NCBI GenBank assembly: GCA_020638955.1
Contig: JACKHO010000007.1
Location: forward strand, 246,745-310,744
DNA length: 64,000 bases
Source: Planctomycetaceae bacterium
GTDB taxonomy: Bacteria > Planctomycetota > Planctomycetia > Planctomycetales > Planctomycetaceae
Reading direction: 5' to 3'
In this document: positions 3,859 through 58,120 of the stretch, piece after piece
Layout: each line of letters begins with the position of its first letter
How positions within the stretch are numbered: the stretch's first letter is position 1
Position numbers and translations under genes: made by a program
The notes under the pieces: model-generated
The model's database searches: none
Told to the model about the DNA's origin: nothing
The model's input: the letters and a program-made list of their open reading frames with translations, nothing else

Positions 3859-4315
3859 ACGCCACTACTCTGACGCGGAATGCGATCGAGGCCTTTAAGT
3901 GAAGCTGATTTGGGACTGCTTGCAGGCAATCCCAACGTTCAAGTCGCTGCAGCCTGGATCGACATTGCACTCACACTTAGGCCACTCGGCCAAGTAGCGA
4001 ACCAGGCCGCGGCACCTCCCGGGCAAGCCCCGACAATTGCTTGCACTCAAGCATTCTGACTTGTGAAGCAAAACACCTGACGTCGCCGAACGCCTCGGTA
4101 TCGCCACATGACCGTGATCACGGGAGTTGACGACGCCTGCTGTTGCCGTCTCAACAACTGCTGTTCGTACAAAAGAAACGAGGTCCCACTCTATGAAGGA
4201 GTGCGACCTCTTTGGATGTTGGTGAAGTCATCAGACAGTAGTCAACCAGCGGCTGGCGCGTAGCAGACATTGCAGTTTGTCATATTCTTCCAATGCGAAT
4301 TCGGAACGTCATTGG

Positions 4316-4786
4316 TTACTCCTTTGGTTCCGGTAAATGCTTTGCCACCGGAATGACATGGTGCCAGCGTGTCAGCGGAGTCATCTTGCCGTCCAATTGG
4401 TGAGTGTTCAGCCAAATCTCACCGCGCTCTGCCAGTTCGCGAAGAATGTGAACGCGGCCCCGTCTTTGACCGTTTTCCATTTCCCGCATTTCCATGGAAA
4501 CAACCAAGTCGGCGTAGTAGCCGCCATCAGCGTTCTTCTTCTGGGCTGGAATATAGAACTGTACTTCATCGAGCGGTTTCATCCGGCCTTCGTCTTGCAG
4601 AGTGAAGACCACAGTCACCCGCCCCGTACCGTGGTCTGTGACCTCGACCTCATACTGCAGCTTCAATTCCTCCTTGGATTCAGAGAGGGGAAAACCGATT
4701 GCATTTGCCTGCTGACAACTCCCTGCCACGACCACCAACGCCAGCAGCGAGGCACCCAGAGACTTCCAAATTCCCAACCAGTTCAT
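4316..4786 (-). CDS. Secreted hypothetical protein.
   Basis: ORF 4316..4831. The internal Met gives the signal peptide MNWLGIWKSLGASLLALVVVAGSCQQANA. Confidence 0.5.
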   Translation of the reverse strand: MNWLGIWKSLGASLLALVVVAGSCQQANAIGFPLSESKEELKLQYEVEVTDHGTGRVTVVFTLQDEGRMKPLDEVQFYIPAQKKNADGGYYADLVVSMEMREMENGQRRGRVHILRELAERGEIWLNTHQLDGKMTPLTRWHHVIPVAKHLPEPKE

Positions 4787-4936
4787 GGCACGTCCTCGAC
4801 TCGAAATAACAGTGAAGTGAGATTCCTTCACATGGTAGACGGATCAGCCGACAGATTCTTAGGGGCAATTTCGAATTGCTGGGTGATGCTGACCAATTTA
4901 GTACGACCGGCCTGATTTTCGATTCGAAAAGACTGG

Positions 4937-5004
4937 CCACAAAAAACACAAAAAGGCACGAAAATGAATCACACTGTTTTTGCGCCTTTTTGTGTTCTTT
5001 GTGG
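4937..5004 (-). terminator. Long A/T-rich inverted repeat that acts as a terminator for the upstream minus-strand GH88-like gene.
   Basis: Arms CCACAAAAAACACAAAAAGGC (4937-4957) and GCCTTTTTGTGTTCTTTGTGG (4984-5004) are complementary with one mismatch. On the minus strand the stem is followed by TCTTTTC. Confidence 0.5.
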
Positions 5005-5055
5005 CAACTCCTGTGGGGTAAATGTCTGACGCGAATTCCGATCAAGGCTCTGAGG

Positions 5056-6834
5056 TCACTTGGTTGCCGTCAGCGCTCGTTCCGTGGCGAACATTAACGC
5101 CATTGCGCCGCCGCGTTCGTCTTTGCCCCAGATTGCGGTGCGGTTGAGGTAGTCGTCGAGTGATTTCTGTTTGCCGGTGCCGGTGCAGACGTCCATGAGT
5201 TCGCCGTGGGCTCCCGTTCGGACTTTGACCGCTTGCCAGGCGCGGTCGACGGCTGTTTTGTACTTTTCATCAGTCAGCCAGCCACGGTCGAGGCTGCGCT
5301 GGAGGGCGAAGCCAATCATGCAGGTGGTAGTCATTTCTCGGTAGGCTCTGGGATCATCAATCACCTGTCGCCACATGCCGGTGACGTCCTGATCCTCCAG
5401 CAATGCCGACAAATGCTGCTCCAGCGCGTCGCGGAATTCTGTTCGCAACTCGCGGGCGACGGGATGCAGCTCCGCGCGGTCGGCGTTGGCCAGAATGGAG
5501 TCGAGGTCGGTCAATGAGAGGGCGAGACCGAGAGCCGGGAATCCGTTGCCGCGGCCCCAGGGTGCTTCGCACAGCGGTGAGTGTCGGTATATCCCGTCGT
5601 CACGCTGGCACAACTTCCGCATGAAGCGGAAGTGCCGCCCGGCCATGTCGAGGTATTTCTGCTCGCCGGTCAACTCCGCCGCGGCCGTGAGAATGGGACA
5701 CGCCATAAAGACCGCGTCGCTCATTTCATTGTGGGTGGGCATGGCTTCGAGCGGCTGCCCCTGGTCATCGAATCCACGGTCAGCCGCCGCCTGCACCAGT
5801 TTGATGGCTGCGGCATCTCCCGAATGTCGTGCCCACTCAGCAAACGCCAAATGTCCGGCATACTGACTGCCGTTCCCTAATCCTTTCAGTGCTTCCTTAT
5901 CCCCGGACAGATAAGGATTCAGAATGCGCTGAACCTGCTGCAGTTGTTCGTCATCATGCCGGGAAATCGCCCAGCGATGCCGCGAAAGGACTGCCAGCGC
6001 CGGCTGATACATAACGCTGTTAAGTTGATCGCCATACACGCTCAGAAGTTCGTCGACAACCTGTTCCGGCGTGCGGTCAATGCGGCGCTGGATTTCGATG
6101 CGTGCTTTGGATTGTGGCCCTTCAAGATTCAAGTCGTCTACCCACTTATGCTCCTGTGACCATGCCTGAACCGTGTTTCGATATTCGAGAGTTGCTTTTG
6201 TTCTTCGTAGTGGCATGGGCTTCCGGCTTACGAGCACGGCTCCTAAGCCTGCTAAACTACGTTGTGCTTCAACAGCAAATGAACCGGGATTCCACTCTAC
6301 GTTGGCCTCTTCTCCTGGAACAAACGCACGAGCAAACTCCTGGTAATCCTCCGACTTTTCATTGTGGTATTCCTTGATGATGTCGGGGCCGAACCAAGCC
6401 GCAAACCGCCAAATCGTCGAGGCAGTCACCTGGCCCGACGAGTTGTATGCATCGCCTTTCGGCGGAAACGTCAGCAATCGTGCACGGCCTGGATCGCCAG
6501 GAAGCATGTCGGGAGTAACCAAGACAACCGCACGTGCGGGGTGGGGGGGAGATCCATTATTTCGCAAGGCATCGAGGAGCGAAATCGTCTTGCACGCCCC
6601 TTGAAGCGCCTCTTCGTCGTCACCGACATCAATGTAATACAGATACCGCGTTTGCTCACGGTTGTACTCCCACGCCCCGGGATCAATCAACACCCGAAGC
6701 GGTTCCCCACGGTCGTCGCGACCAATGGTGAGGACATCGCCTTTCCATGACTGAATGGCTTGCTCCAAGACATCGTCCGCCATGAGTGGACTGAGCAAGC
6801 AGAGCCAACAAATAACTGCGAGGCGATAGGGCAT
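5056..6834 (-). CDS. Secreted six-hairpin glycosidase-like protein (GH88/GH105 family-like C-terminal domain) with an unknown N-terminal domain.
   Basis: Signal peptide MPYRLAVICWLCLLSPLMA. The C-terminal half contains APWGRGNGFPALGLA, which resembles the conserved RGNGW block of unsaturated glucuronyl/rhamnogalacturonyl hydrolases. Family call is from memory. Confidence 0.55.
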   Translation of the reverse strand: MPYRLAVICWLCLLSPLMADDVLEQAIQSWKGDVLTIGRDDRGEPLRVLIDPGAWEYNREQTRYLYYIDVGDDEEALQGACKTISLLDALRNNGSPPHPARAVVLVTPDMLPGDPGRARLLTFPPKGDAYNSSGQVTASTIWRFAAWFGPDIIKEYHNEKSEDYQEFARAFVPGEEANVEWNPGSFAVEAQRSLAGLGAVLVSRKPMPLRRTKATLEYRNTVQAWSQEHKWVDDLNLEGPQSKARIEIQRRIDRTPEQVVDELLSVYGDQLNSVMYQPALAVLSRHRWAISRHDDEQLQQVQRILNPYLSGDKEALKGLGNGSQYAGHLAFAEWARHSGDAAAIKLVQAAADRGFDDQGQPLEAMPTHNEMSDAVFMACPILTAAAELTGEQKYLDMAGRHFRFMRKLCQRDDGIYRHSPLCEAPWGRGNGFPALGLALSLTDLDSILANADRAELHPVARELRTEFRDALEQHLSALLEDQDVTGMWRQVIDDPRAYREMTTTCMIGFALQRSLDRGWLTDEKYKTAVDRAWQAVKVRTGAHGELMDVCTGTGKQKSLDDYLNRTAIWGKDERGGAMALMFATERALTATK

Positions 6835-6913: not shown

Positions 6914-8047
6914 TTACTTCGCGGGCTGTTTCGCCAGCTCATCAAGTTCCGACAGTTTGAGACGCTCACTCAAAATATACGGCGGCTCGCCTTGAGCCCA
7001 GTGGCCGTAGGTTGTCACCAGGAAGGTGCCGTCGGGCAGGATTTCGACGCCGGGATAAGCGGTGTCGTAACCGTTGGTGTTGTCCTTTAGACGGACGAAA
7101 TACTGGCCGGGCTTGTTTTCAACGAGGTCATCCCACGTGCCGACCCATGCGACCCAGTCCCCTTCGAATGGGCGTTCGCTCCGTTTGGCGGAGGGGGAAA
7201 TGCAGCGGAAGCTGATGAGCAGCCGACCATCAGGTCCGTACTTGCCTGTGTGACGATCACCCGTGAGGGAAAGCGGCACTTCGCGCGGTTCAGACCACGT
7301 GGCCCCTTCGTCGTCGGAGAAAATGATGTGCGAATTCTTACGGCGTGCATTCTCACGCAGCAACACGGCAAGGCGTTTTCCGTCCGGCGAGCGAATGCAT
7401 CCCGGCTCGCACAAATTGACCTCAGATGAATTGAAAACCGCTTCAGGATGCGACCACGTCAGCCCACCGTCTTTCGAGAATGTTTTGTAGAGGGTGAATC
7501 CCGCACCAGCGACGGGCTTGCCGGTGAAGAAGCGGCCGTCATCGTGGAACATGGCGAGGTAGTGTCCTTTGCCTGTCTTGAGCGGTTCGACAAATCCCAT
7601 GACGACAATCCCACCCCAGTCGCCGACCTGTTTCAACTCACTCCAGGTGCCACCATCGTCTTCCGTAACGGCCAGCCGGGCCGGGTAAAGTCCGGACCAC
7701 ATGATGATCCGTTTCTTCCCCTCAGCGTCGATAACGCGGTGGAGCGTGGGAACTTCTCTGCTGGTCGCCCACGACTCAGGAGTTGCGATGCGGTCACTCC
7801 AGTTGAGGCCACCGTCGTTGCTCCGCTTGTAAACAATCCCGCCCCGTCCATGCCCTTTGGGATAGACGCACAACACGGTTTTGCCGTCTTCCAGCAGGCA
7901 AGTTGTGGGATGCCCCAGGTACTGACCCGCTTCACGGTCCACAACCACCTGCCGGGCGGTGTCATTATCGAGGTCGATGAGCACCGGGTCGGCCCCCACG
8001 ACAGTTGCCGAAACAAACAGGAACGAAACCAGCCAAACAGAACGCAT
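6914..8047 (-). CDS. BNR-repeat sialidase-like glycoside hydrolase, secreted.
   Basis: Signal peptide MRSVWLVSFLFVSATVVGA. Four BNR motifs: SNDGGLNWS, TEDDGGTWS, SKDGGLTWS, SDDEGATWS. Confidence 0.75.
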   Translation of the reverse strand: MRSVWLVSFLFVSATVVGADPVLIDLDNDTARQVVVDREAGQYLGHPTTCLLEDGKTVLCVYPKGHGRGGIVYKRSNDGGLNWSDRIATPESWATSREVPTLHRVIDAEGKKRIIMWSGLYPARLAVTEDDGGTWSELKQVGDWGGIVVMGFVEPLKTGKGHYLAMFHDDGRFFTGKPVAGAGFTLYKTFSKDGGLTWSHPEAVFNSSEVNLCEPGCIRSPDGKRLAVLLRENARRKNSHIIFSDDEGATWSEPREVPLSLTGDRHTGKYGPDGRLLISFRCISPSAKRSERPFEGDWVAWVGTWDDLVENKPGQYFVRLKDNTNGYDTAYPGVEILPDGTFLVTTYGHWAQGEPPYILSERLKLSELDELAKQPAK

Positions 8048-8238
8048 GCTTCTCACCTTGCTGAAGTGACAGAGAATCCGAGTCTGATCGTAACCAATTG
8101 ACCATGCCCCGTGCACGGACCGCCGCAAACTTTCAGAGATTCGGTGTGGGCAGACTGATTGGTTTTCCAGTACAACAACGTGCACTCCTTAACCCAAAGT
8201 CACTGTTGCAGCGACTGTGGAGGAAGTCACCGCATTGT

Positions 8239-8348
8239 GGTGGGTTACGTCCGCTTGTCGCCCATCACCGAAACTTTGCCTCCTGATCTTGTTGGATGAC
8301 TTGCCTAACGCACTTTCCGATTTGACGCGAACTTCACCCACCCTACGA
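8239..8348 (+). repeat. Copy a of repeat family R1 (about 110 bp, bounded by GGTGGGTTACGTC ... ACTTCACCCACCCTACGA).
   Basis: Shares its terminal blocks and the internal block TTGC(C/G)TAACGCAC with 43962-44072. The 5' GGTGGGT is complementary to the 3' ACCCACC. It ends 18 nt upstream of the M28 peptidase ATG. Confidence 0.6.
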
Positions 8349-8365
8349 GCGAACGGATTACTCGA

Positions 8366-9598
8366 ATGAGAAGGAACGATCTGCGTTCCACATGTTGGTT
8401 GATACTGATTGCCGGCGTTTTGTTGATATGCAGGCAGTGTGGGATCACATGCGCTGATGAAGCCCGCCCGCCCGCACCGGCGACGCCAATTACTCTCATT
8501 GATTCAGCTATTCGCATTGCTGCCGACGACGTGCGACCGCACGTGCAGTTTCTGGCCAGCCCCGAATTGAAAGGTCGCGGACCGGAAGGGAAACCAGCAG
8601 CGCGTGAATACATCATTGCGCACTTTGAGAAACTGGGACTGAAACCGCTGTTTGACGGTGACTTTCTTCAGCCGCTCCCCGGCCAAGTCGATGAAAACGG
8701 TAATCCGACCTACGTCGGTGCCAACATTGGAGCCTATCTCCCGGCAGACAATGCTGCGGGAGCCAAAGAGTGGATTGTGCTGAACGCTCACTACGACCAT
8801 CTCGGCATTCGGAATGGTCGCATTTATCCCGGTGCTGACGACAACGCCTCGAGCATGTCGATGCTGCTGGAAACGGCACGGCAACTGGCCAATTTAAAGC
8901 AACGTCCCCAACGCAACATTGCCTTCGTCGCGTTTGATTTGGAGGAGCAACTCCTGTGGGGATCACGCTGGTTTGTCGCGCATCCTCCCTGCGAACCGGA
9001 GCAGATAAAATTCTGCATGACAGCCGACTTGCTGGGCCGTTCACTCGGCAACCTCCCCATGCGAACCGTGTTCATTATGGGTACGGAGCGAACACCTGAG
9101 TTTCGCAAGTACCTCACCGCGGCCAATCCCAGCGGCTCGCTTGAACTCGGTTTTCTAGGAGCCGACATGGTGGGCACGCGGAGCGACTACGGTCCGTTTC
9201 GCGACCAGGAAATTCCATTCCTCTTTTTCTCCACGGGCGAGCACCCCGACTATCACACACCGAATGACACACCGGACAAAATCGATTACGAGAAACTCGC
9301 CGAAATTTCGACAATCATGGCGCGCCTGTGTGCTCATCTAGGTGAACTGCCGGAAGTCCCAACGTGGAAGTCACCCGATCCCACTGATCCCATCGATGCG
9401 AAAACCATGAACCGCGTCACCGAGGCACTACTCAAGGCCGATGACACAGGTAAAATCCAGTTGAGTGGTTTTCATCGCACGTTTGTTTCGCAACTGCAGT
9501 CGAAAACTGGCGGTGCAATGCGGCGTGGCCGGATTTCGGCTGAAGAACGTGTCTGGCTCATTAGAGCCTCTCAATTCCTGTTGATTTCCGTATTCTGA
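8366..9598 (+). CDS. M28-family zinc peptidase (aminopeptidase-like), secreted.
   Basis: HYDHLG, GADDNASS, DLEEQ, SDYGPF and EHPDYHTPND metal-ligand blocks. N-terminal hydrophobic signal. Confidence 0.8.
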   Translation: MRRNDLRSTCWLILIAGVLLICRQCGITCADEARPPAPATPITLIDSAIRIAADDVRPHVQFLASPELKGRGPEGKPAAREYIIAHFEKLGLKPLFDGDFLQPLPGQVDENGNPTYVGANIGAYLPADNAAGAKEWIVLNAHYDHLGIRNGRIYPGADDNASSMSMLLETARQLANLKQRPQRNIAFVAFDLEEQLLWGSRWFVAHPPCEPEQIKFCMTADLLGRSLGNLPMRTVFIMGTERTPEFRKYLTAANPSGSLELGFLGADMVGTRSDYGPFRDQEIPFLFFSTGEHPDYHTPNDTPDKIDYEKLAEISTIMARLCAHLGELPEVPTWKSPDPTDPIDAKTMNRVTEALLKADDTGKIQLSGFHRTFVSQLQSKTGGAMRRGRISAEERVWLIRASQFLLISVF

Positions 9599-13315: not shown

Positions 13316-14712
13316 TTCTAGCTCTACCCCATTGGTGAGTCAAGTATATTATTGCCTTAATCATGGTCTGCATACGTTTGCAGCCGTTGACAATCCGGTC
13401 GATTTGGTCGTCCGCGTTCTGGTCGAGTTTCCCCCGATAGTCCTGCTTCAGGAATTGAGCAAAACCAGCGACCGCCCGTAGCGGCGACTGCAGGTCATGC
13501 GAGGCAATGTAGGCGAACTGTTGCAGTTCCATGTTGCTCTGTTCGAGAAACTCATTCTTCTCGTGCAGTTCGCGCGTCATTTCCATGACGCGGTCATTCA
13601 GGCTGGTACTCAGTTGCTTCAGGTTCTTCGTAAAATCGGCAAGTGCCTGTTGCTCGCGCATTTCCGTGAGGACAACAAACCAAAGTGCCACGCCGTATGC
13701 CATGAGCCGCAGCAAGTGCCAGCCCCACCAGGGTAAATCCCACAACTGCGACTGCTCGAACATGACCGCCGCCGCGCCGAACAGCGAACAGTGGAGAAAG
13801 AACAGCAAGTCATCGACGTTTTTGGTCTGACGGTAGGTGGTTACCAATCGTACCGCGGCGGCAATGAGGAGTACTCCACCCACAACATTGAGACTCTTGG
13901 CCCACAGGCTGAAGACCTTCTCCCCCTGCTCGTTGACGAACAACATGCGAGGAGTTGCGCCGGGATACGCCAGTGACAGAATGCCGAACAGAAAAACGAC
14001 ACCAAATACTGCCCAAGGCCACCACGCCAATAAGCGTCGCCCCCAGCTCTTGGGCACCCAAACCATTGCAAACAGTACGCCGCCGACAAATGTCGCAGTG
14101 CTATGCAGCCAGACGAATTCCTGGCCAGCGTAGACGAGCGCATGCAGGCCATCGAGCAGCCCCATGCCAATCATGGCCCCGGCAATCCAGACGTTATAGC
14201 TCGTTCCCGCGTTCCGCCATTCCAGAGACAACAGCATCCACGCGACCCAGACGGCAATAAGTCCGCCGGACATCTCCACGGCAGCATGGACTGGATGATG
14301 TGGCCAACGCCACTCGCGCATGAGGGTATGCCCCAGAATCAGGCACACCACGTGAATAACGAGACTGACGCCAATGACCACCCACAAAGTCCGCCCCAGG
14401 CGTGGGGGAGGGCGAACGACGACATCAATCCCCAACGGCAGAGCAGCCGCCGGAAGTGGTTGCCGTTCACTGTCAGTGTGTGGCACGGAGTCGTTCATTG
14501 GAAGTGAAAGCCAACTGACGTGGTGGGCCAGTAGCCGTTCCAAGTGCCCCTCCCTGTGGGGCCGCGGAACCTGCCGCTGCATCCCCTTCGTCTGCCAGAG
14601 AACTCGAGCAAACAGATTGTTTCACAGAACCTCTCGCCATTACTGCAAAGATTCCATGAAACGCTCTGTTCCGACTTTCGCATCGAAGCGTGCTGGTGTC
14701 AAGCCCTTGCGG

Positions 14713-15906: not shown

Positions 15907-15980
<74 letters not shown>

Positions 15981-20296: not shown

Positions 20297-20830
20297 GACA
20301 ATCTCCGTTGCCTGATGCCGCAATTCCCCAATATGAATGGCGGAAATGGGCGATTGCGAATGAGAAGCCGCGCGAAGCAAGAAACGGACCGGATGCCGAG
20401 GCATCCTGCCGGACCGAGTCTGTTCTCCGCAGACTTTCATTCAGTTGACTGACCACAAGGCAGGTCTTCTGGCTTCCGGATTGTCCTACTTGCCGCGCCT
20501 TCCCTCACACGTTTGTGAAGTGGCGAGTGCGGCGTTCGTCCCCGGTTACAGCGGCGGGACCGCGACGGATTTACACCGTCTTCCCTATTCTTCCACCAGG
20601 AACACCCTGGCGGACACCTCGGTCAGCTGGAATCGTGACGCGGCGTGGTTCGATTGTCAAGGAATTCAAACTCGCCACGAATTGTGAGAACCGCAACGTT
20701 TTCTCATCAGTCACAGAAGGTCTTGGGGGGATTCGTCCAAGTCGCTATCTTCTCAGTCATTACAGCAACGGAAGCTCCCTAAATCGCTTCCGGTCATCGT
20801 CCCCATTGCAATTGCAGAATACCCATTCCC

Positions 20831-43284: not shown

Positions 43285-43857
43285 TTGACACTCGCGTTGA
43301 AACGTGGCACGGAGGCCATTGTGAGTTCTGGATCAACACCGAAACAAAAAACCGAAACGCAAATCCGCTGGCTTATTCGCCGGGACATGCCGGAGGTGCT
43401 TCAAATCGAACAGGAAAGTTTCCAGTCCCCCTGGACTGATGAAGACTTTCTTTGCTGTCTCCGCCAGCGAAATTGCATTGGCATGGTTGCCGAGCAGGAC
43501 CAACGGATTGTGGGGTTCATGATTTATGAACTGCACAAAACCCGCCTGCACATTCTGAATTTCGCCGTTGCGAAAGACTTGCGCCGCAGCGGTGTCGGCG
43601 GACAAATGGTCCTCCGTCTCATCGACAAACTTTCGCAACAGCGCCGCAACGAAATTCTATTGGAAGTCCGCGAACGGAATCTCGACGCACAGCTCTTCTT
43701 CCGTGAACAGAACTTCCGGGCGATTAGCGTGCTGCGTTGCCATTACGACGACACCGACGAAGACGCCTACATCTTGCGTTTCCGTCTCGACGCCACACAC
43801 GACGCGACCTCCCCGTACTCCCCTCGGAATCGCATTTCCGAATACGATGCTGCGTAG
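43285..43857 (+). CDS. rimI: GNAT N-acetyltransferase, RimI-like.
   Basis: IRRDMPEVLQIEQESFQSPW ... LAVAKDLRRSGVGGQMVLRLI (acetyl-CoA-binding Q/RxxGxG/A motif). The true start may be downstream of the first Met. Confidence 0.7.
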   Translation: MTLALKRGTEAIVSSGSTPKQKTETQIRWLIRRDMPEVLQIEQESFQSPWTDEDFLCCLRQRNCIGMVAEQDQRIVGFMIYELHKTRLHILNFAVAKDLRRSGVGGQMVLRLIDKLSQQRRNEILLEVRERNLDAQLFFREQNFRAISVLRCHYDDTDEDAYILRFRLDATHDATSPYSPRNRISEYDAA

Positions 43858-43961
43858 CGCATAGCCCAACTGACACTTCCTCGGATTGCGTCCCCGATGT
43901 AACGGCATCGTATCGGTATGGCTCCCTTTTGTAGGGTGTGTGCAGCAAGTCGCCGGAATTT

Positions 43962-44072
43962 GGTGGGTTACGTCAGCGAATCACGCGTCACGGAAATGGC
44001 GCCCCGATTGTCGCAGCGAACGACTTGCGTAACGCACCATCCTGATTGTCGCCGACTTCACCCACCCTACGA
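43962..44072 (+). repeat. Copy b of repeat family R1, 30 nt upstream of truA.
   Basis: Same termini as copy a (GGTGGGTTACGTC ... ACTTCACCCACCCTACGA) and the shared internal block GACTTGCGTAACGCAC. Confidence 0.6.
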
Positions 44073-44101
44073 ATCATTTGATGTAGCGGCACCATACCGT
44101 C

Positions 44102-44914
44102 ATGGCCCAGCGAAACATCAGGCTGACACTCTCCTACGACGGAACTGACTTTGCGGGATGGCAGGTTCAACCGAATCGCCGCACGGTCCAGGGAGTCGTC
44201 GAGCACGCCATTCTGAAAACGTCTGGCGAATCACTCCGAATTCTCGCCGCCGGGCGTACCGACTCCGGTGTGCATGCACTGGGACAGGTGGCGAACTTCC
44301 GGACCGAGTCAGACATCCCGGCTGATCGCTGGAAGCTCGCGCTCAGGGCTCACTTGCCCGACGAGGTGGTGGTCGTCGAAAGTGAAGAAGTCGACTACGA
44401 GTTCCATGCGACTTTCTCTGCCAAGACGAAACGGTATCGCTACGTCATTTACAATCACGTCGTCGAGTTCCCCTTTCTCAAAAACTACGCGTGGCGTATC
44501 CCGCAGGAACTCGATGTCGCCGCCATGCATGCAGCAGCACAGGAACTCGTTGGCAAACACGATTTTCGCAGCTTCGAATCACACTGGCCGAATAAAGCGA
44601 CGAGCATTCGGACAGTGAACCAGGTCTCGGTAAATCGCGTCGCAGAGTGGCCCGCTTGGTCACCCGTTGCGACCGCTGGTGAGAGAGTTGACGGAGAAAG
44701 CACACCCACTGCTCCGTTTATTGTGCTGGAAATTGAAGCGGACGGATTTCTCTACAACATGGTCCGGACCATTACGGGAACGCTGCTCAACGTGGGGCGT
44801 GGCAACTGGACTGGCAAAGATGTAAGACGGATTCTCGAAGCCATGAATCGAAAAGAAGCGGGCGGAACGGCTCCGGCTCATGGACTTTATCTCGTATGCG
44901 TGCATTACGGCTGA
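44102..44914 (+). CDS. truA: tRNA pseudouridine(38-40) synthase.
   Basis: LTLSYDGTDFAGWQVQ ... RTDSGVHALGQV (catalytic Asp motif). Confidence 0.9.
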   Translation: MAQRNIRLTLSYDGTDFAGWQVQPNRRTVQGVVEHAILKTSGESLRILAAGRTDSGVHALGQVANFRTESDIPADRWKLALRAHLPDEVVVVESEEVDYEFHATFSAKTKRYRYVIYNHVVEFPFLKNYAWRIPQELDVAAMHAAAQELVGKHDFRSFESHWPNKATSIRTVNQVSVNRVAEWPAWSPVATAGERVDGESTPTAPFIVLEIEADGFLYNMVRTITGTLLNVGRGNWTGKDVRRILEAMNRKEAGGTAPAHGLYLVCVHYG

Positions 44915-47817: not shown

Positions 47818-48029
47818 CCGAATTCCGGTTCATTTTCATCGCAGCAATTTCCTGATATAACACGGCGATAATGCCGGGCTCGTTTTGTGCCGCTTTGGGC
47901 AATTACGTCCGCGGTACCGGTTGGATTTTGCAGGGATGCAGTGGCGATGGCCGACTTGGAGGCGGTCGCCGTAGTCTGGTTGCTCGCTTACCAGACAAAT
48001 TCTCAAGGTGCATCCTACTTACTGGTGAC

Positions 48030-57182: not shown

Positions 57183-57245
57183 CAAGCCGAGGGGTGGCCC
57201 AGATCAAATCTGAGCGGCGAAGCCGTTCAAGGCTGCGGATTGGTC

Positions 57246-57377
57246 AACCATCCGGGCAGTCGCGTTGAATCTCTGTTTGACGGAAGAGAATCACTACGGA
57301 GTCACGGAGGATACAGAGCTGGCGTAATGTCGGCGGCCTCCTGAACAATTCTCAGTGCCCTCCGTGCCTCCGTGGTT
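57246..57377 (+). repeat. Copy a of repeat family R2 (about 135 bp, terminator-like structured element).
   Basis: About 85 percent identical to 57990-58120. It contains the long imperfect stem CTACGGAGTCACGGAGG / CCTCCGTGCCTCCGTGG around a loop of about 45 nt, followed by TTTTCTC. Confidence 0.6.
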
Positions 57378-57500: not shown

Positions 57501-57956
57501 ATGAATTGGCTGAACATCAGCCTGAAATCTCACAAGATGCTCGGGGGTGGCATGTATCTCCTGACAATGCTCGTCAATGCAGTTGTCGCGCTTTCCATAG
57601 GAACTCTGCTGTGGATTGGATGCCAGAATTCCGGTCATACCCCAGATTCTCTTAACGTCATTGTCGGCGTGGTGCTCATTGCAATCCCGGGCGTGGCGTT
57701 CTCCGCTGTCGCGTTCGTTACACGCAAGCACCGCTGGCTGGCTTTAGTGACTCTGTGTGCCTCAATATTCGTCGGGGGATTGGCCGTTTGGATTCTGGGA
57801 ACGAACACCCCCTTCGCACGCATTCCGCCGGGTGATCTTTATGAAAACCCGGCCCCGCCCATTGTTTTGTTCGGTCAGACTGTCCTGACGGCAATTTGCA
57901 CGACGCTGATTCTGCTACGGTACGGCTTTGCCGGCATGTATTCGCAAAAACGCTAG
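57501..57956 (+). CDS. Hypothetical four-helix membrane protein.
   Basis: Hydrophobic segments LLTMLVNAVVALSIGTLLWIG, VIVGVVLIAIPGVAFSAVAFV, LALVTLCASIFVGGLAVWIL, LFGQTVLTAICTTLILL. Flanked by the two R2 copies. Confidence 0.45.
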   Translation: MNWLNISLKSHKMLGGGMYLLTMLVNAVVALSIGTLLWIGCQNSGHTPDSLNVIVGVVLIAIPGVAFSAVAFVTRKHRWLALVTLCASIFVGGLAVWILGTNTPFARIPPGDLYENPAPPIVLFGQTVLTAICTTLILLRYGFAGMYSQKR

Positions 57957-57989
57957 CAACTCAACTGAAATTGGGGCGGCGAATTCGTC

Positions 57990-58120
57990 GACCAATCGGG
58001 CAGTCACGTTGAATTTCTGATCGACGAAAGAAAATCACCACGGAGTCACGGAGGACACGGAGCTGGCGTGATGGCGCCGTCACCTGAACAATTCTCACTG
58101 CCCTCCTTGTCTCCGTGGTT
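57990..58120 (+). repeat. Copy b of repeat family R2.
   Basis: See copy a. Its T-tract is weaker (TTATTCG). Confidence 0.6.

Follow-up and report, generated by a model that had tools for sequence, protein, structure and literature searches.

A probable REPIN-type palindromic repeat with interleaved hairpin arms in Planctomycetaceae

Introduction

The stretch of Planctomycetaceae DNA analysed here, 64 kb in length and referred to below as the window, carries two copies of a repeat in the same orientation, each lying just upstream of the start codon of a gene, which raises the question of whether the repeat is a regulatory RNA that serves the genes behind it or a mobile element that came to rest in front of them. 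A sequence-only reading of the same DNA had described an element of about 110 nt with complementary termini and had left the choice between a structured cis-regulatory RNA and a miniature mobile element carrying a promoter or an untranslated region. The analysis presented here argues with good confidence for a mobile origin: both copies are most probably non-autonomous palindromic repeats of ~145 nt belonging to the GTAG-tagged REP/REPIN kind.

Extent and organization of the two copies in the window

Both copies were found at the positions given in the sequence-only reading, in the same orientation and with exact shared ends. The common start block GGTGGGTTACGTC matches exactly at 8239 and 43962, the common end block, the 18-mer ACTTCACCCACCCTACGA, matches exactly at 8331-8348 and 44055-44072, and the internal block TTGC(C/G)TAACGCAC is present at 8301 and 44025. 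The 18-mer occurs twice in the 64-kb window, compared with 0.01 matches expected, and none of 100 shuffles reached two. Regarding the size of the element, the 3' end proposed from the sequence was retained while the length of ~110 nt and the 5' terminus had to be revised, as the similarity runs ~33-40 nt further in the 5' direction (pairwise alignment and a repeat finder gave 73% identity between 8200-8273 and 43923-43996). The unit is therefore ~145 nt long, extending from 8206 to 8348 in copy A and from 43929 to 44072 in copy B, both on the plus strand, and the formerly proposed 5' end is an internal arm (the 5' arm of the hairpin designated REP-B), not the element terminus. A profile built from 25 homologous copies (alignment A2) matched only these two copies in the window.

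Copy A (8206-8348) was detected with the A2 profile at 8206-8352 (nhmmer, E=2.5e-32) as well as by pairwise alignments. Its foot and REP-A 5' arm occupy 8208-8229 (A2 columns 14-35), with the foot at 8208-8211, the core at 8212-8218 and the distal part at 8222-8229, followed by the REP-B 5' arm GGTGGGTTACGTCCGCT at 8239-8255 (A2 columns 47-63; helix H34), which is what had been taken for the start of the element. The REP-A 3' arm TGACTTGCCTAACGCACT at 8297-8314 (A2 columns 108-125; helix H12) corresponds to the internal block, and the REP-B 3' arm at 8326-8342 is followed by CTAC at 8343-8346, this region (8326-8346; A2 columns 141-161) containing the exact 18-mer. Copy A is partly decayed: its 5' foot has the sequence GCAG in place of GTAG, and its REP-A core arm is degenerate. 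Copy B (43929-44072; nhmmer 43928-44079, E=1.2e-42) is well preserved and has the same parts in the same A2 columns and helices: an intact GTAG foot and REP-A 5' arm at 43931-43952 (foot 43931-43934, core GGTGTGT 43935-43941, distal part GCAAGTCG 43945-43952), the REP-B 5' arm GGTGGGTTACGTCAGCG at 43962-43978, the REP-A 3' arm CGACTTGCGTAACGCACC at 44021-44038, and the REP-B 3' arm at 44050-44066 with CTAC at 44067-44070 (44050-44070 in all, again with the exact 18-mer). It also has a conserved 3' extension, GAATCATTTG, reaching about 44081. The CTAC at the 3' end of either copy is a GTAG foot read on the minus strand (8346-8343 and 44070-44067).

Copy A is located in a divergent intergenic region (8048-8365) between a gene encoding a BNR-repeat protein on the minus strand (6914-8047) and the M28 peptidase gene on the plus strand (8366-9598); the start of the BNR-repeat gene at 8047 was inferred from its orthologue of 377 aa in the congeneric genome JAWKUB01, described below, and from alignment A4. 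Copy B is located in a co-directional intergenic region (43858-44101) between a GNAT acetyltransferase gene, which ends at 43857, and truA (44102-44914). The identities of all four flanking genes (BNR-repeat, M28 peptidase, GNAT acetyltransferase, and truA) were confirmed using Pfam. As had been noted from the sequence, the copies lie just 5' of start codons, ending 17 nt before the ATG of the M28 peptidase gene (8366) and 29 nt before that of truA (44102).

Nothing suggests that the element carries a promoter, as the sequence-only reading had proposed for the mobile option: neither a sigma-70-like promoter nor an intrinsic terminator was found inside copy A or copy B. Searches against Rfam returned no match at the elements, whether the whole window was scanned at the gathering thresholds or each copy was searched by itself at E<=10. 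Elsewhere in the window are a full-length cobalamin riboswitch on the minus strand (20442-20634; RF00174, 122.5 bits, E=2.9e-30) and a tRNA gene on the plus strand (15907-15980; RF00005, 70.3 bits). The window also contains a second, unrelated repeat family of ~150 nt, whose two copies (57231-57377 and 57975-58120) are 744 nt apart, share 83-87% identity and have an internal inverted repeat, ACCACGGAGTCACGGAGG … CCTCCGTGCCTCCGTGGT; an ORF encoding a membrane-like protein of 151 aa (57501-57956) is situated between them, with one copy upstream of it. An 18-nt tandem periodicity at 921-992 (AGATGACCGTCGTCGCGA-like, family D4) is probably a coding repeat.

Distribution of the family and genomic contexts

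The distribution of the repeat was investigated by scanning genome contigs, one genome per species, for the exact 18-mer, which yielded 47 loci (individual loci are referred to below by number). Of these, 21 are from one MAG, Planctomycetaceae bacterium ABC1.128 (JAWKUB01, hereafter JAWKUB), and the others include loci from Planctomicrobium and Planctomyces MAGs. JAWKUB is congeneric with the organism of the window, with protein identities of 96% for TruA and 88% for the M28 peptidase and a DNA identity of 89-92%. Eighteen of its 21 loci align across the whole 145 nt and three are deletion variants; two more copies, which do not have the exact 18-mer, bring the number in this genome to at least 23, all of them between long ORFs and with both orientations represented. 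The repeat is thus dispersed and multi-copy, with a density of ~3 per Mb that is low compared with the hundreds of copies typical of classic REPINs. Two of the deletion variants (L009 3898-3963 and L020 2093-2147) consist of a mini REP-A, GTAGGGTGCGTAACGCACC, fused to the REP-B 3' arm, and the third (L045 2242-2353) is without the REP-A 3' arm.

An extra outer inverted repeat of the form CCCGGATTATTC…(about 10 nt)…GTAGGG … CCCTAC-GAATAATYCGGG was observed in a subset of copies (L034 3150-3330, as well as L002, L016, L038, and L041), while most copies, including copy B of the window, have its 3' part only (GAATNATTYGG). This could represent either a full-length master element of ~185 nt or an insertion into a palindromic target.

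Twenty-one copies from JAWKUB and related MAGs could be classified with respect to their neighboring genes, on the basis of crude longest-ORF calls, as sense co-directional (eight copies), antisense co-directional (six), convergent (five), or divergent (two). For most copies the closest flanking ORF is no more than about 30 nt away, and in some cases the copy nearly fills the intergenic gap. The genes that flank the copies have no functional relation to one another.

Orthologous sites in a congeneric genome

In JAWKUB, the orthologous intergenic region between the BNR-repeat and M28 peptidase genes does not contain copy A, which thus represents a presence/absence polymorphism. The spacer between the two genes is 170 nt long there, compared with 318 nt in the window; the indel of ~148 nt coincides with copy A, and outside copy A the two spacers are ~90% identical, with the conserved part lying upstream of the copy. 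The flanks of the indel are unalignable over about 35-45 nt, and its boundaries are accordingly approximate; it may be an insertion or a deletion. Copy B, on the other hand, is shared with JAWKUB at the orthologous truA site (L052 9827-9978), where the four arms are almost unchanged and substitutions occur mainly in the loops; the 30 nt downstream of the copy are also conserved before truA. Target-site duplications were not detected at any boundary offset tested, the best match between flanks being a 2-mer in 32% of the copies.

Two further differences were observed in the JAWKUB locus that carries the truA site. Its positions 13720-14491, compared with position 47821 of the window, hold an extra segment of ~770 nt with an ORF of 191 aa (13840-14415) that is not in the window, and its positions 4159-5827 map inverted onto window positions 22377-20709, showing that local synteny between the congeners has been rearranged.

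Covariation and folding of the interleaved hairpins

Alignment A2 comprises 25 full-length planctomycete copies, in which the arms follow the order A5', B5', a variable stretch of ~45 nt, A3', and B3', so that the loop of each hairpin, at ~70-80 nt, encloses one arm of the other. The doublet has the same orientation in all copies (REP-A forward and REP-B inverted in 25/25), and the GTAG foot is represented by G in 22/25 copies at column 14, T in 18/25 at column 15, A in 24/25 at column 16, and G in 23/25 at column 17. In Chloroflexi, Hydrogenedentes, Phycisphaerae, and other groups, the same heads occur in the canonical layout of two compact side-by-side hairpins with a spacer, which is not that of the planctomycete element. 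A scan of metagenomes using a planctomycete-specific 22-mer recovered three loci only, none of them of the interleaved type.

Two models of pairing were compared, an interleaved model in which A5' pairs with A3' (H12) and B5' with B3' (H34), and a nested model in which arms 1 and 4 form the outer helix and arms 3 and 2 the inner one. With the interleaved model, 91.7% of cells were paired and 13 pairs, comprising 34 cells, were changed on both sides, compared with 6-8 pairs in slid controls and with 0/500 shuffles, the shuffle statistics overstating the significance because copies in the same genome share ancestry. With the nested model, 82.4% of cells were paired and four pairs, comprising four cells, were changed on both sides, which is equal to the slid controls.

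The distal stem of H12 has double changes at seven of its eight pairs. Its usual form, GCAAGTCG / CGACTTGC, is replaced by GCAGGTCG / CGACCTGC in L013 and L024, by GCAAGCC / GGCTTGC in L038, and by GTACGCG / CGCGTAC in L003. Similarly, the usual distal stem of H34, GTCCGCG / CGCGGAC, is replaced by GTTCGC / GCGAAC in five copies and by GTCTGCG / CGCAGAC in L022, the core of this helix being unable to vary because it is fixed by the 18-mer search pattern. The pairing of GGTGGGT with ACCCACC that had been predicted from the sequence is real, being that of helix H34, and is backed by compensatory changes. The sequence-only reading had named a family of just two copies without compensatory changes as the outcome that would speak against it; the family has many copies and does show compensatory changes, which agree no less well with DNA hairpins than with RNA.

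The nested long hairpin was rejected as the selected structure, given that its covariation equals that of the controls. It is physically possible and is often the MFE structure (DNA parameters) because it allows two helices at once, while H12 and H34 together on one strand need a pseudoknot. Thermodynamics thus gave no decision between the interleaved and the nested model, and the MFE z-scores from single-sequence folding, ranging from -0.9 to -1.5, were unremarkable. A G-quadruplex, which had been considered owing to papers on the c-MYC G4 that share the motif, was dropped, as neither strand has four G-runs.

Regarding wobble pairs, H12 read on the plus strand contains 33 G·T and 10 A·C combinations, compared with two and seven, respectively, in the part of H34 outside the search pattern. 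The asymmetry between the two helices has a Fisher p of 0.003, or of 0.06 without one fixed pair, in copies that are not independent of each other. It thus seems that wobble is permitted in each hairpin on whichever strand bears its own GTAG foot, a suggestive pattern that fits strand-specific hairpins of single-stranded DNA and is unlike the expectation for a single sense RNA.

REP design of the element and association of its heads with RAYT genes

REP-A has the form GTAG-GGTGTGTG…AACGCACC, with its GTAG foot on the plus strand, and REP-B, which is inverted, has the form GGTGGGTT…CACCCACC-CTAC, with its GTAG foot on the minus strand. The design found across phyla among the matches to the 18-mer is GTAG-GGTGGGTG-(loop)-AACCCACC, a spacer, and GGTGGGTT-(loop)-CACCCACC-CTAC; judged by its sequence, this is a pair of GTAG-footed predicted hairpins inverted relative to each other, the arrangement by which a REP doublet or REPIN is defined. 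The heads fall into two recurrent subtypes, type A (GTAGGGTGGGTG(C/T)AGC…) and type B (GTAGGGTGGGTGAAGT…). The planctomycete element bears both, with GTAGGGTGTGTGCAGC… at the 5' side (type A) and the reverse complement of GTAGGGTGGGTGAAGT… at the 3' side (type B), and is thereby a member of this head family.

Genes encoding RAYTs were detected next to such heads in other phyla. In a Dehalococcoidia locus (L023), the 18-mer is located 25 nt upstream of an ORF of 180 aa (6926-7465) that was assigned to NCBIfam NF047646, 'REP-associated tyrosine transposase' (185.6 bits, cutoff 80), and that also matches PDB 4ER8, the TnpA-REP of E. coli (E=2.7e-36). A type-B REP is present before this gene and two inverted type-A REPs after it, and the same arrangement was found in three further loci (L055, L057, and L058), the RAYTs of which have 62-73% protein identity. 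In all four loci, GTAGGGTGGGT…ACCCACC is situated 10-25 nt before the ATG and GGTGGGT…CACCCACCCTAC just past the stop codon, and the flanking heads of these Chloroflexi-type loci are of the GTAGGGTGGGTG type. A single REP with a GTAGGGTGGGTG head adjoins a partial RAYT gene in a Nitrospirales MAG (L039), and in L049 a RAYT start truncated by the contig end (MSDYRRAY) is 45 nt from a short-loop REP-B with the same stem as H34.

Ordinary adjacent REP doublets with a GTAGGGTGGGTG head, comprising subtypes A and B, are present in Chloroflexi/Dehalococcoidia, Hydrogenedentes, Phycisphaerae, and Desulfatirhabdium. The loci concerned are L001, L007, L010, L012, L014, L017, L025, L028-L030, L036, L050, and L051. 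In one of these, from a Chloroflexi MAG (L007 3835-4516), two REP doublets bracket an ORF encoding a small MNT-like nucleotidyltransferase (4048-4350), not a RAYT.

Using regex, tblastn and a broader HUH/Y-motif scan, no RAYT or other Y1/HUH gene was detected in the 64-kb window and about 230 kb of planctomycete loci, nor did a tnpA or tnpB gene adjoin any of the copies studied. When the Chloroflexi RAYT was used as the query of a protein search, the best 120 of nearly 8,000 matches were close relatives of the query; among these 120 matches, all of those with a taxon name were from Chloroflexi or Dehalococcoidia, so that this search did not lead to a planctomycete RAYT. REP-RAYT systems are usually lineage-specific and vertically inherited, and near-identical heads across phyla are unexpected for such systems.

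Proposed mechanism and alternative explanations

Of the two options left by the sequence-only reading, the miniature mobile element is supported by the dispersed multi-copy pattern in the congener, by the absence of copy A from its orthologous site, and by the heads shared with RAYT-flanking REPs, together with the interleaved covariation of the arms and the insertion sites free of target duplications. By analogy with the TnpA-REP of E. coli and the TnpA of IS200/IS605, a Y1/HUH transposase would recognize the GTAG foot together with its hairpin on single-stranded DNA, which would be the active form of the element, and would then cut and rejoin it without a target duplication. In this organism, too, the enzyme responsible for mobilization may be a RAYT. 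Interleaving could be tolerated because each strand would need its own hairpin only, REP-A on the plus strand and REP-B on the minus strand; alternatively, a pseudoknot might bring the two GTAG feet together. The cognate Y1 gene would be expected to be flanked by GTAGGGTG(G/T)GTG hairpins.

If this mechanism applies, the closeness of the copies to the start codons of the M28 peptidase gene and truA would reflect where they landed and were tolerated, filling intergenic space, and their effects on the mRNAs of these genes, if any, would be secondary. The copies of the window are probably contained within the 5' UTR or leader of the M28 peptidase gene and within the GNAT-truA intercistronic transcript, apparently as a consequence of landing there and not as their purpose.

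As far as could be checked, the interleaved order of arms has not been described before. Rather more tentatively than the assignment to the REP/REPIN kind, we suggest that A5'-B5'-A3'-B3' could be a genuinely new REPIN architecture found across several lineages of Planctomycetaceae, in the form of a single-stranded DNA pseudoknot or of strand-specific overlapping hairpins, served either by a RAYT or by a planctomycete-type Y1 enzyme; this is a serious possibility, though not one on which we would insist.

Among the alternative explanations, the one that survives best, while still being unlikely, is that of an immobile REP-derived element co-opted by the host, for example as an mRNA stabilizer, a terminator or pause site, or a nucleoid or topoisomerase site. 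Such host roles have been described for the REPs and BIMEs of E. coli. A co-opted element would accord with the low copy number, with the tight filling of intergenic gaps, with the RAYT-free DNA searched here (the window and about 230 kb of planctomycete loci), and with copy B, which has remained at the same site since the species split with its arms conserved and its loops diverged; however, the host function is purely putative, copy A is dispensable in the congener, and some members of the family carry deletions or have decayed (L009, L020, L045, and copy A). This explanation is compatible with that of a REPIN and does not exclude it.

The repeat is very unlikely to be a MITE that descends from a DDE-type insertion sequence and owes its mobility to terminal inverted repeats. 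Inverted repeats of ~14-17 nt are indeed present at the termini (TTGTAGGGTGTGTG and CACCCACCCTACGAA), and the element is small, dispersed, and present or absent at an orthologous site, but a target-site duplication was found at no tested offset, the hairpins at the termini have GTAG feet and are identical to the ones on either side of RAYT genes, the internal arms show hairpin covariation, and a parent insertion sequence with the same termini was not seen in the loci examined.

The other option of the sequence-only reading, a structured cis-regulatory leader RNA (riboswitch- or attenuator-like) governing the downstream genes, can scarcely be upheld, since, although both copies of the window are sense and end 17-29 nt before start codons, the long-range helices have compensatory changes, and copy B is conserved together with the 30 nt downstream of it before truA in the congener, 11 of the 21 copies that could be classified lie either antisense to the neighboring genes or between convergent ones, the neighbors are functionally unrelated, the M28 orthologue of JAWKUB has no element while its truA orthologue does, no Rfam family was matched even at E<=10, the MFE z-scores are only -0.9 to -1.5, and the wobble pattern differs between H12 and H34, unlike that of a single sense RNA.

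Implications of a REPIN-type repeat in Planctomycetaceae

The assignment of the repeats to the REP/REPIN kind removes a false lead, namely that of a new riboswitch-like leader, and provides the annotation of a repeat family in the Planctomycetaceae, which are poorly studied. Confirmation of the interleaved layout would mean that RAYT-type elements do not need compact adjacent hairpins, and the repeat family would then provide a naturally occurring test of the strand and the hairpin read by the transposase. The REP head shared by RAYT genes in distant phyla gives a handle on the spread of REP-RAYT systems. Heads shared across Chloroflexi, Planctomycetes, Hydrogenedentes, and others would, if this holds true, imply that one RAYT/REP system either has spread horizontally or is very deeply conserved, and would run against the picture of REPINs and RAYTs as lineage-specific and vertically inherited. 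With copy A in front of the M28 peptidase gene in the window and an empty site in JAWKUB, the two genomes constitute a natural experiment on the influence of such insertions on the expression of a neighboring gene.

Comparison with known systems

Regarding IS200/IS605 ends and the class 3 TnpA-Y1 proteins (PMC6006769), the element would by analogy share recognition through a hairpin and foot on single-stranded DNA, and like them it is without target duplications. Class 3 TnpA-Y1 genes, around which 'atypical secondary structures' were reported, are enriched in Planctomycetes and also occur in Acidobacteria (PMC6006769). The class 3 foot, however, is CnGA and not GTAG, and the copies studied here have no tnpA or tnpB next to them.

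According to the text of the survey of the GTAG-tagged REP superfamily (PMC3733652), GTAG REPs and tyrosine transposases occur in Planctomycetes (Rhodopirellula baltica, GTAG-20/21) and in Chloroflexi (Thermomicrobium roseum, GTAG-23). As far as the text of that survey describes them, the features held in common are a stem-loop with GTAG at one end, an occurrence in PVC and Chloroflexi, the formation of dimers, and the link with tyrosine transposases. The planctomycete repeat may be identical with one of the 24 GTAG families of that survey; GGTGGGT does not appear in its text or in the supplements searched, and its family consensus sequences stand in a figure (PMC3733652). A description of the motif GTAGGGTGGGTG as a REP was not found in the literature searched.

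The REPINs of Pseudomonas fluorescens SBW25 (PMC3116915) resemble the element in consisting of two inverted REP hairpins with a GTAG foot and in being extragenic, multi-copy, and non-coding. As in RAYT-mobilized REPINs, the same heads flank RAYT genes as 'REPtrons', and the whole element can be folded into one long hairpin. In contrast to these REPINs (PMC3116915), the planctomycete arms are interleaved and not adjacent, the loops measure 70-80 nt instead of a few nt, the copy number is low, and no RAYT was found here in the window and about 230 kb of planctomycete loci.

Compared with the REPs and BIMEs of E. coli, the planctomycete element differs in its sequence, in its much longer distal stems, and in its interleaved arrangement. 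The likeness to the E. coli system lies in the RAYT found beside this type of REP, which is homologous to TnpA-REP (PDB 4ER8, E=2.7e-36), and in the pairing of subtypes A and B in doublets, as is the case for the Y and Z REPs of E. coli BIMEs.
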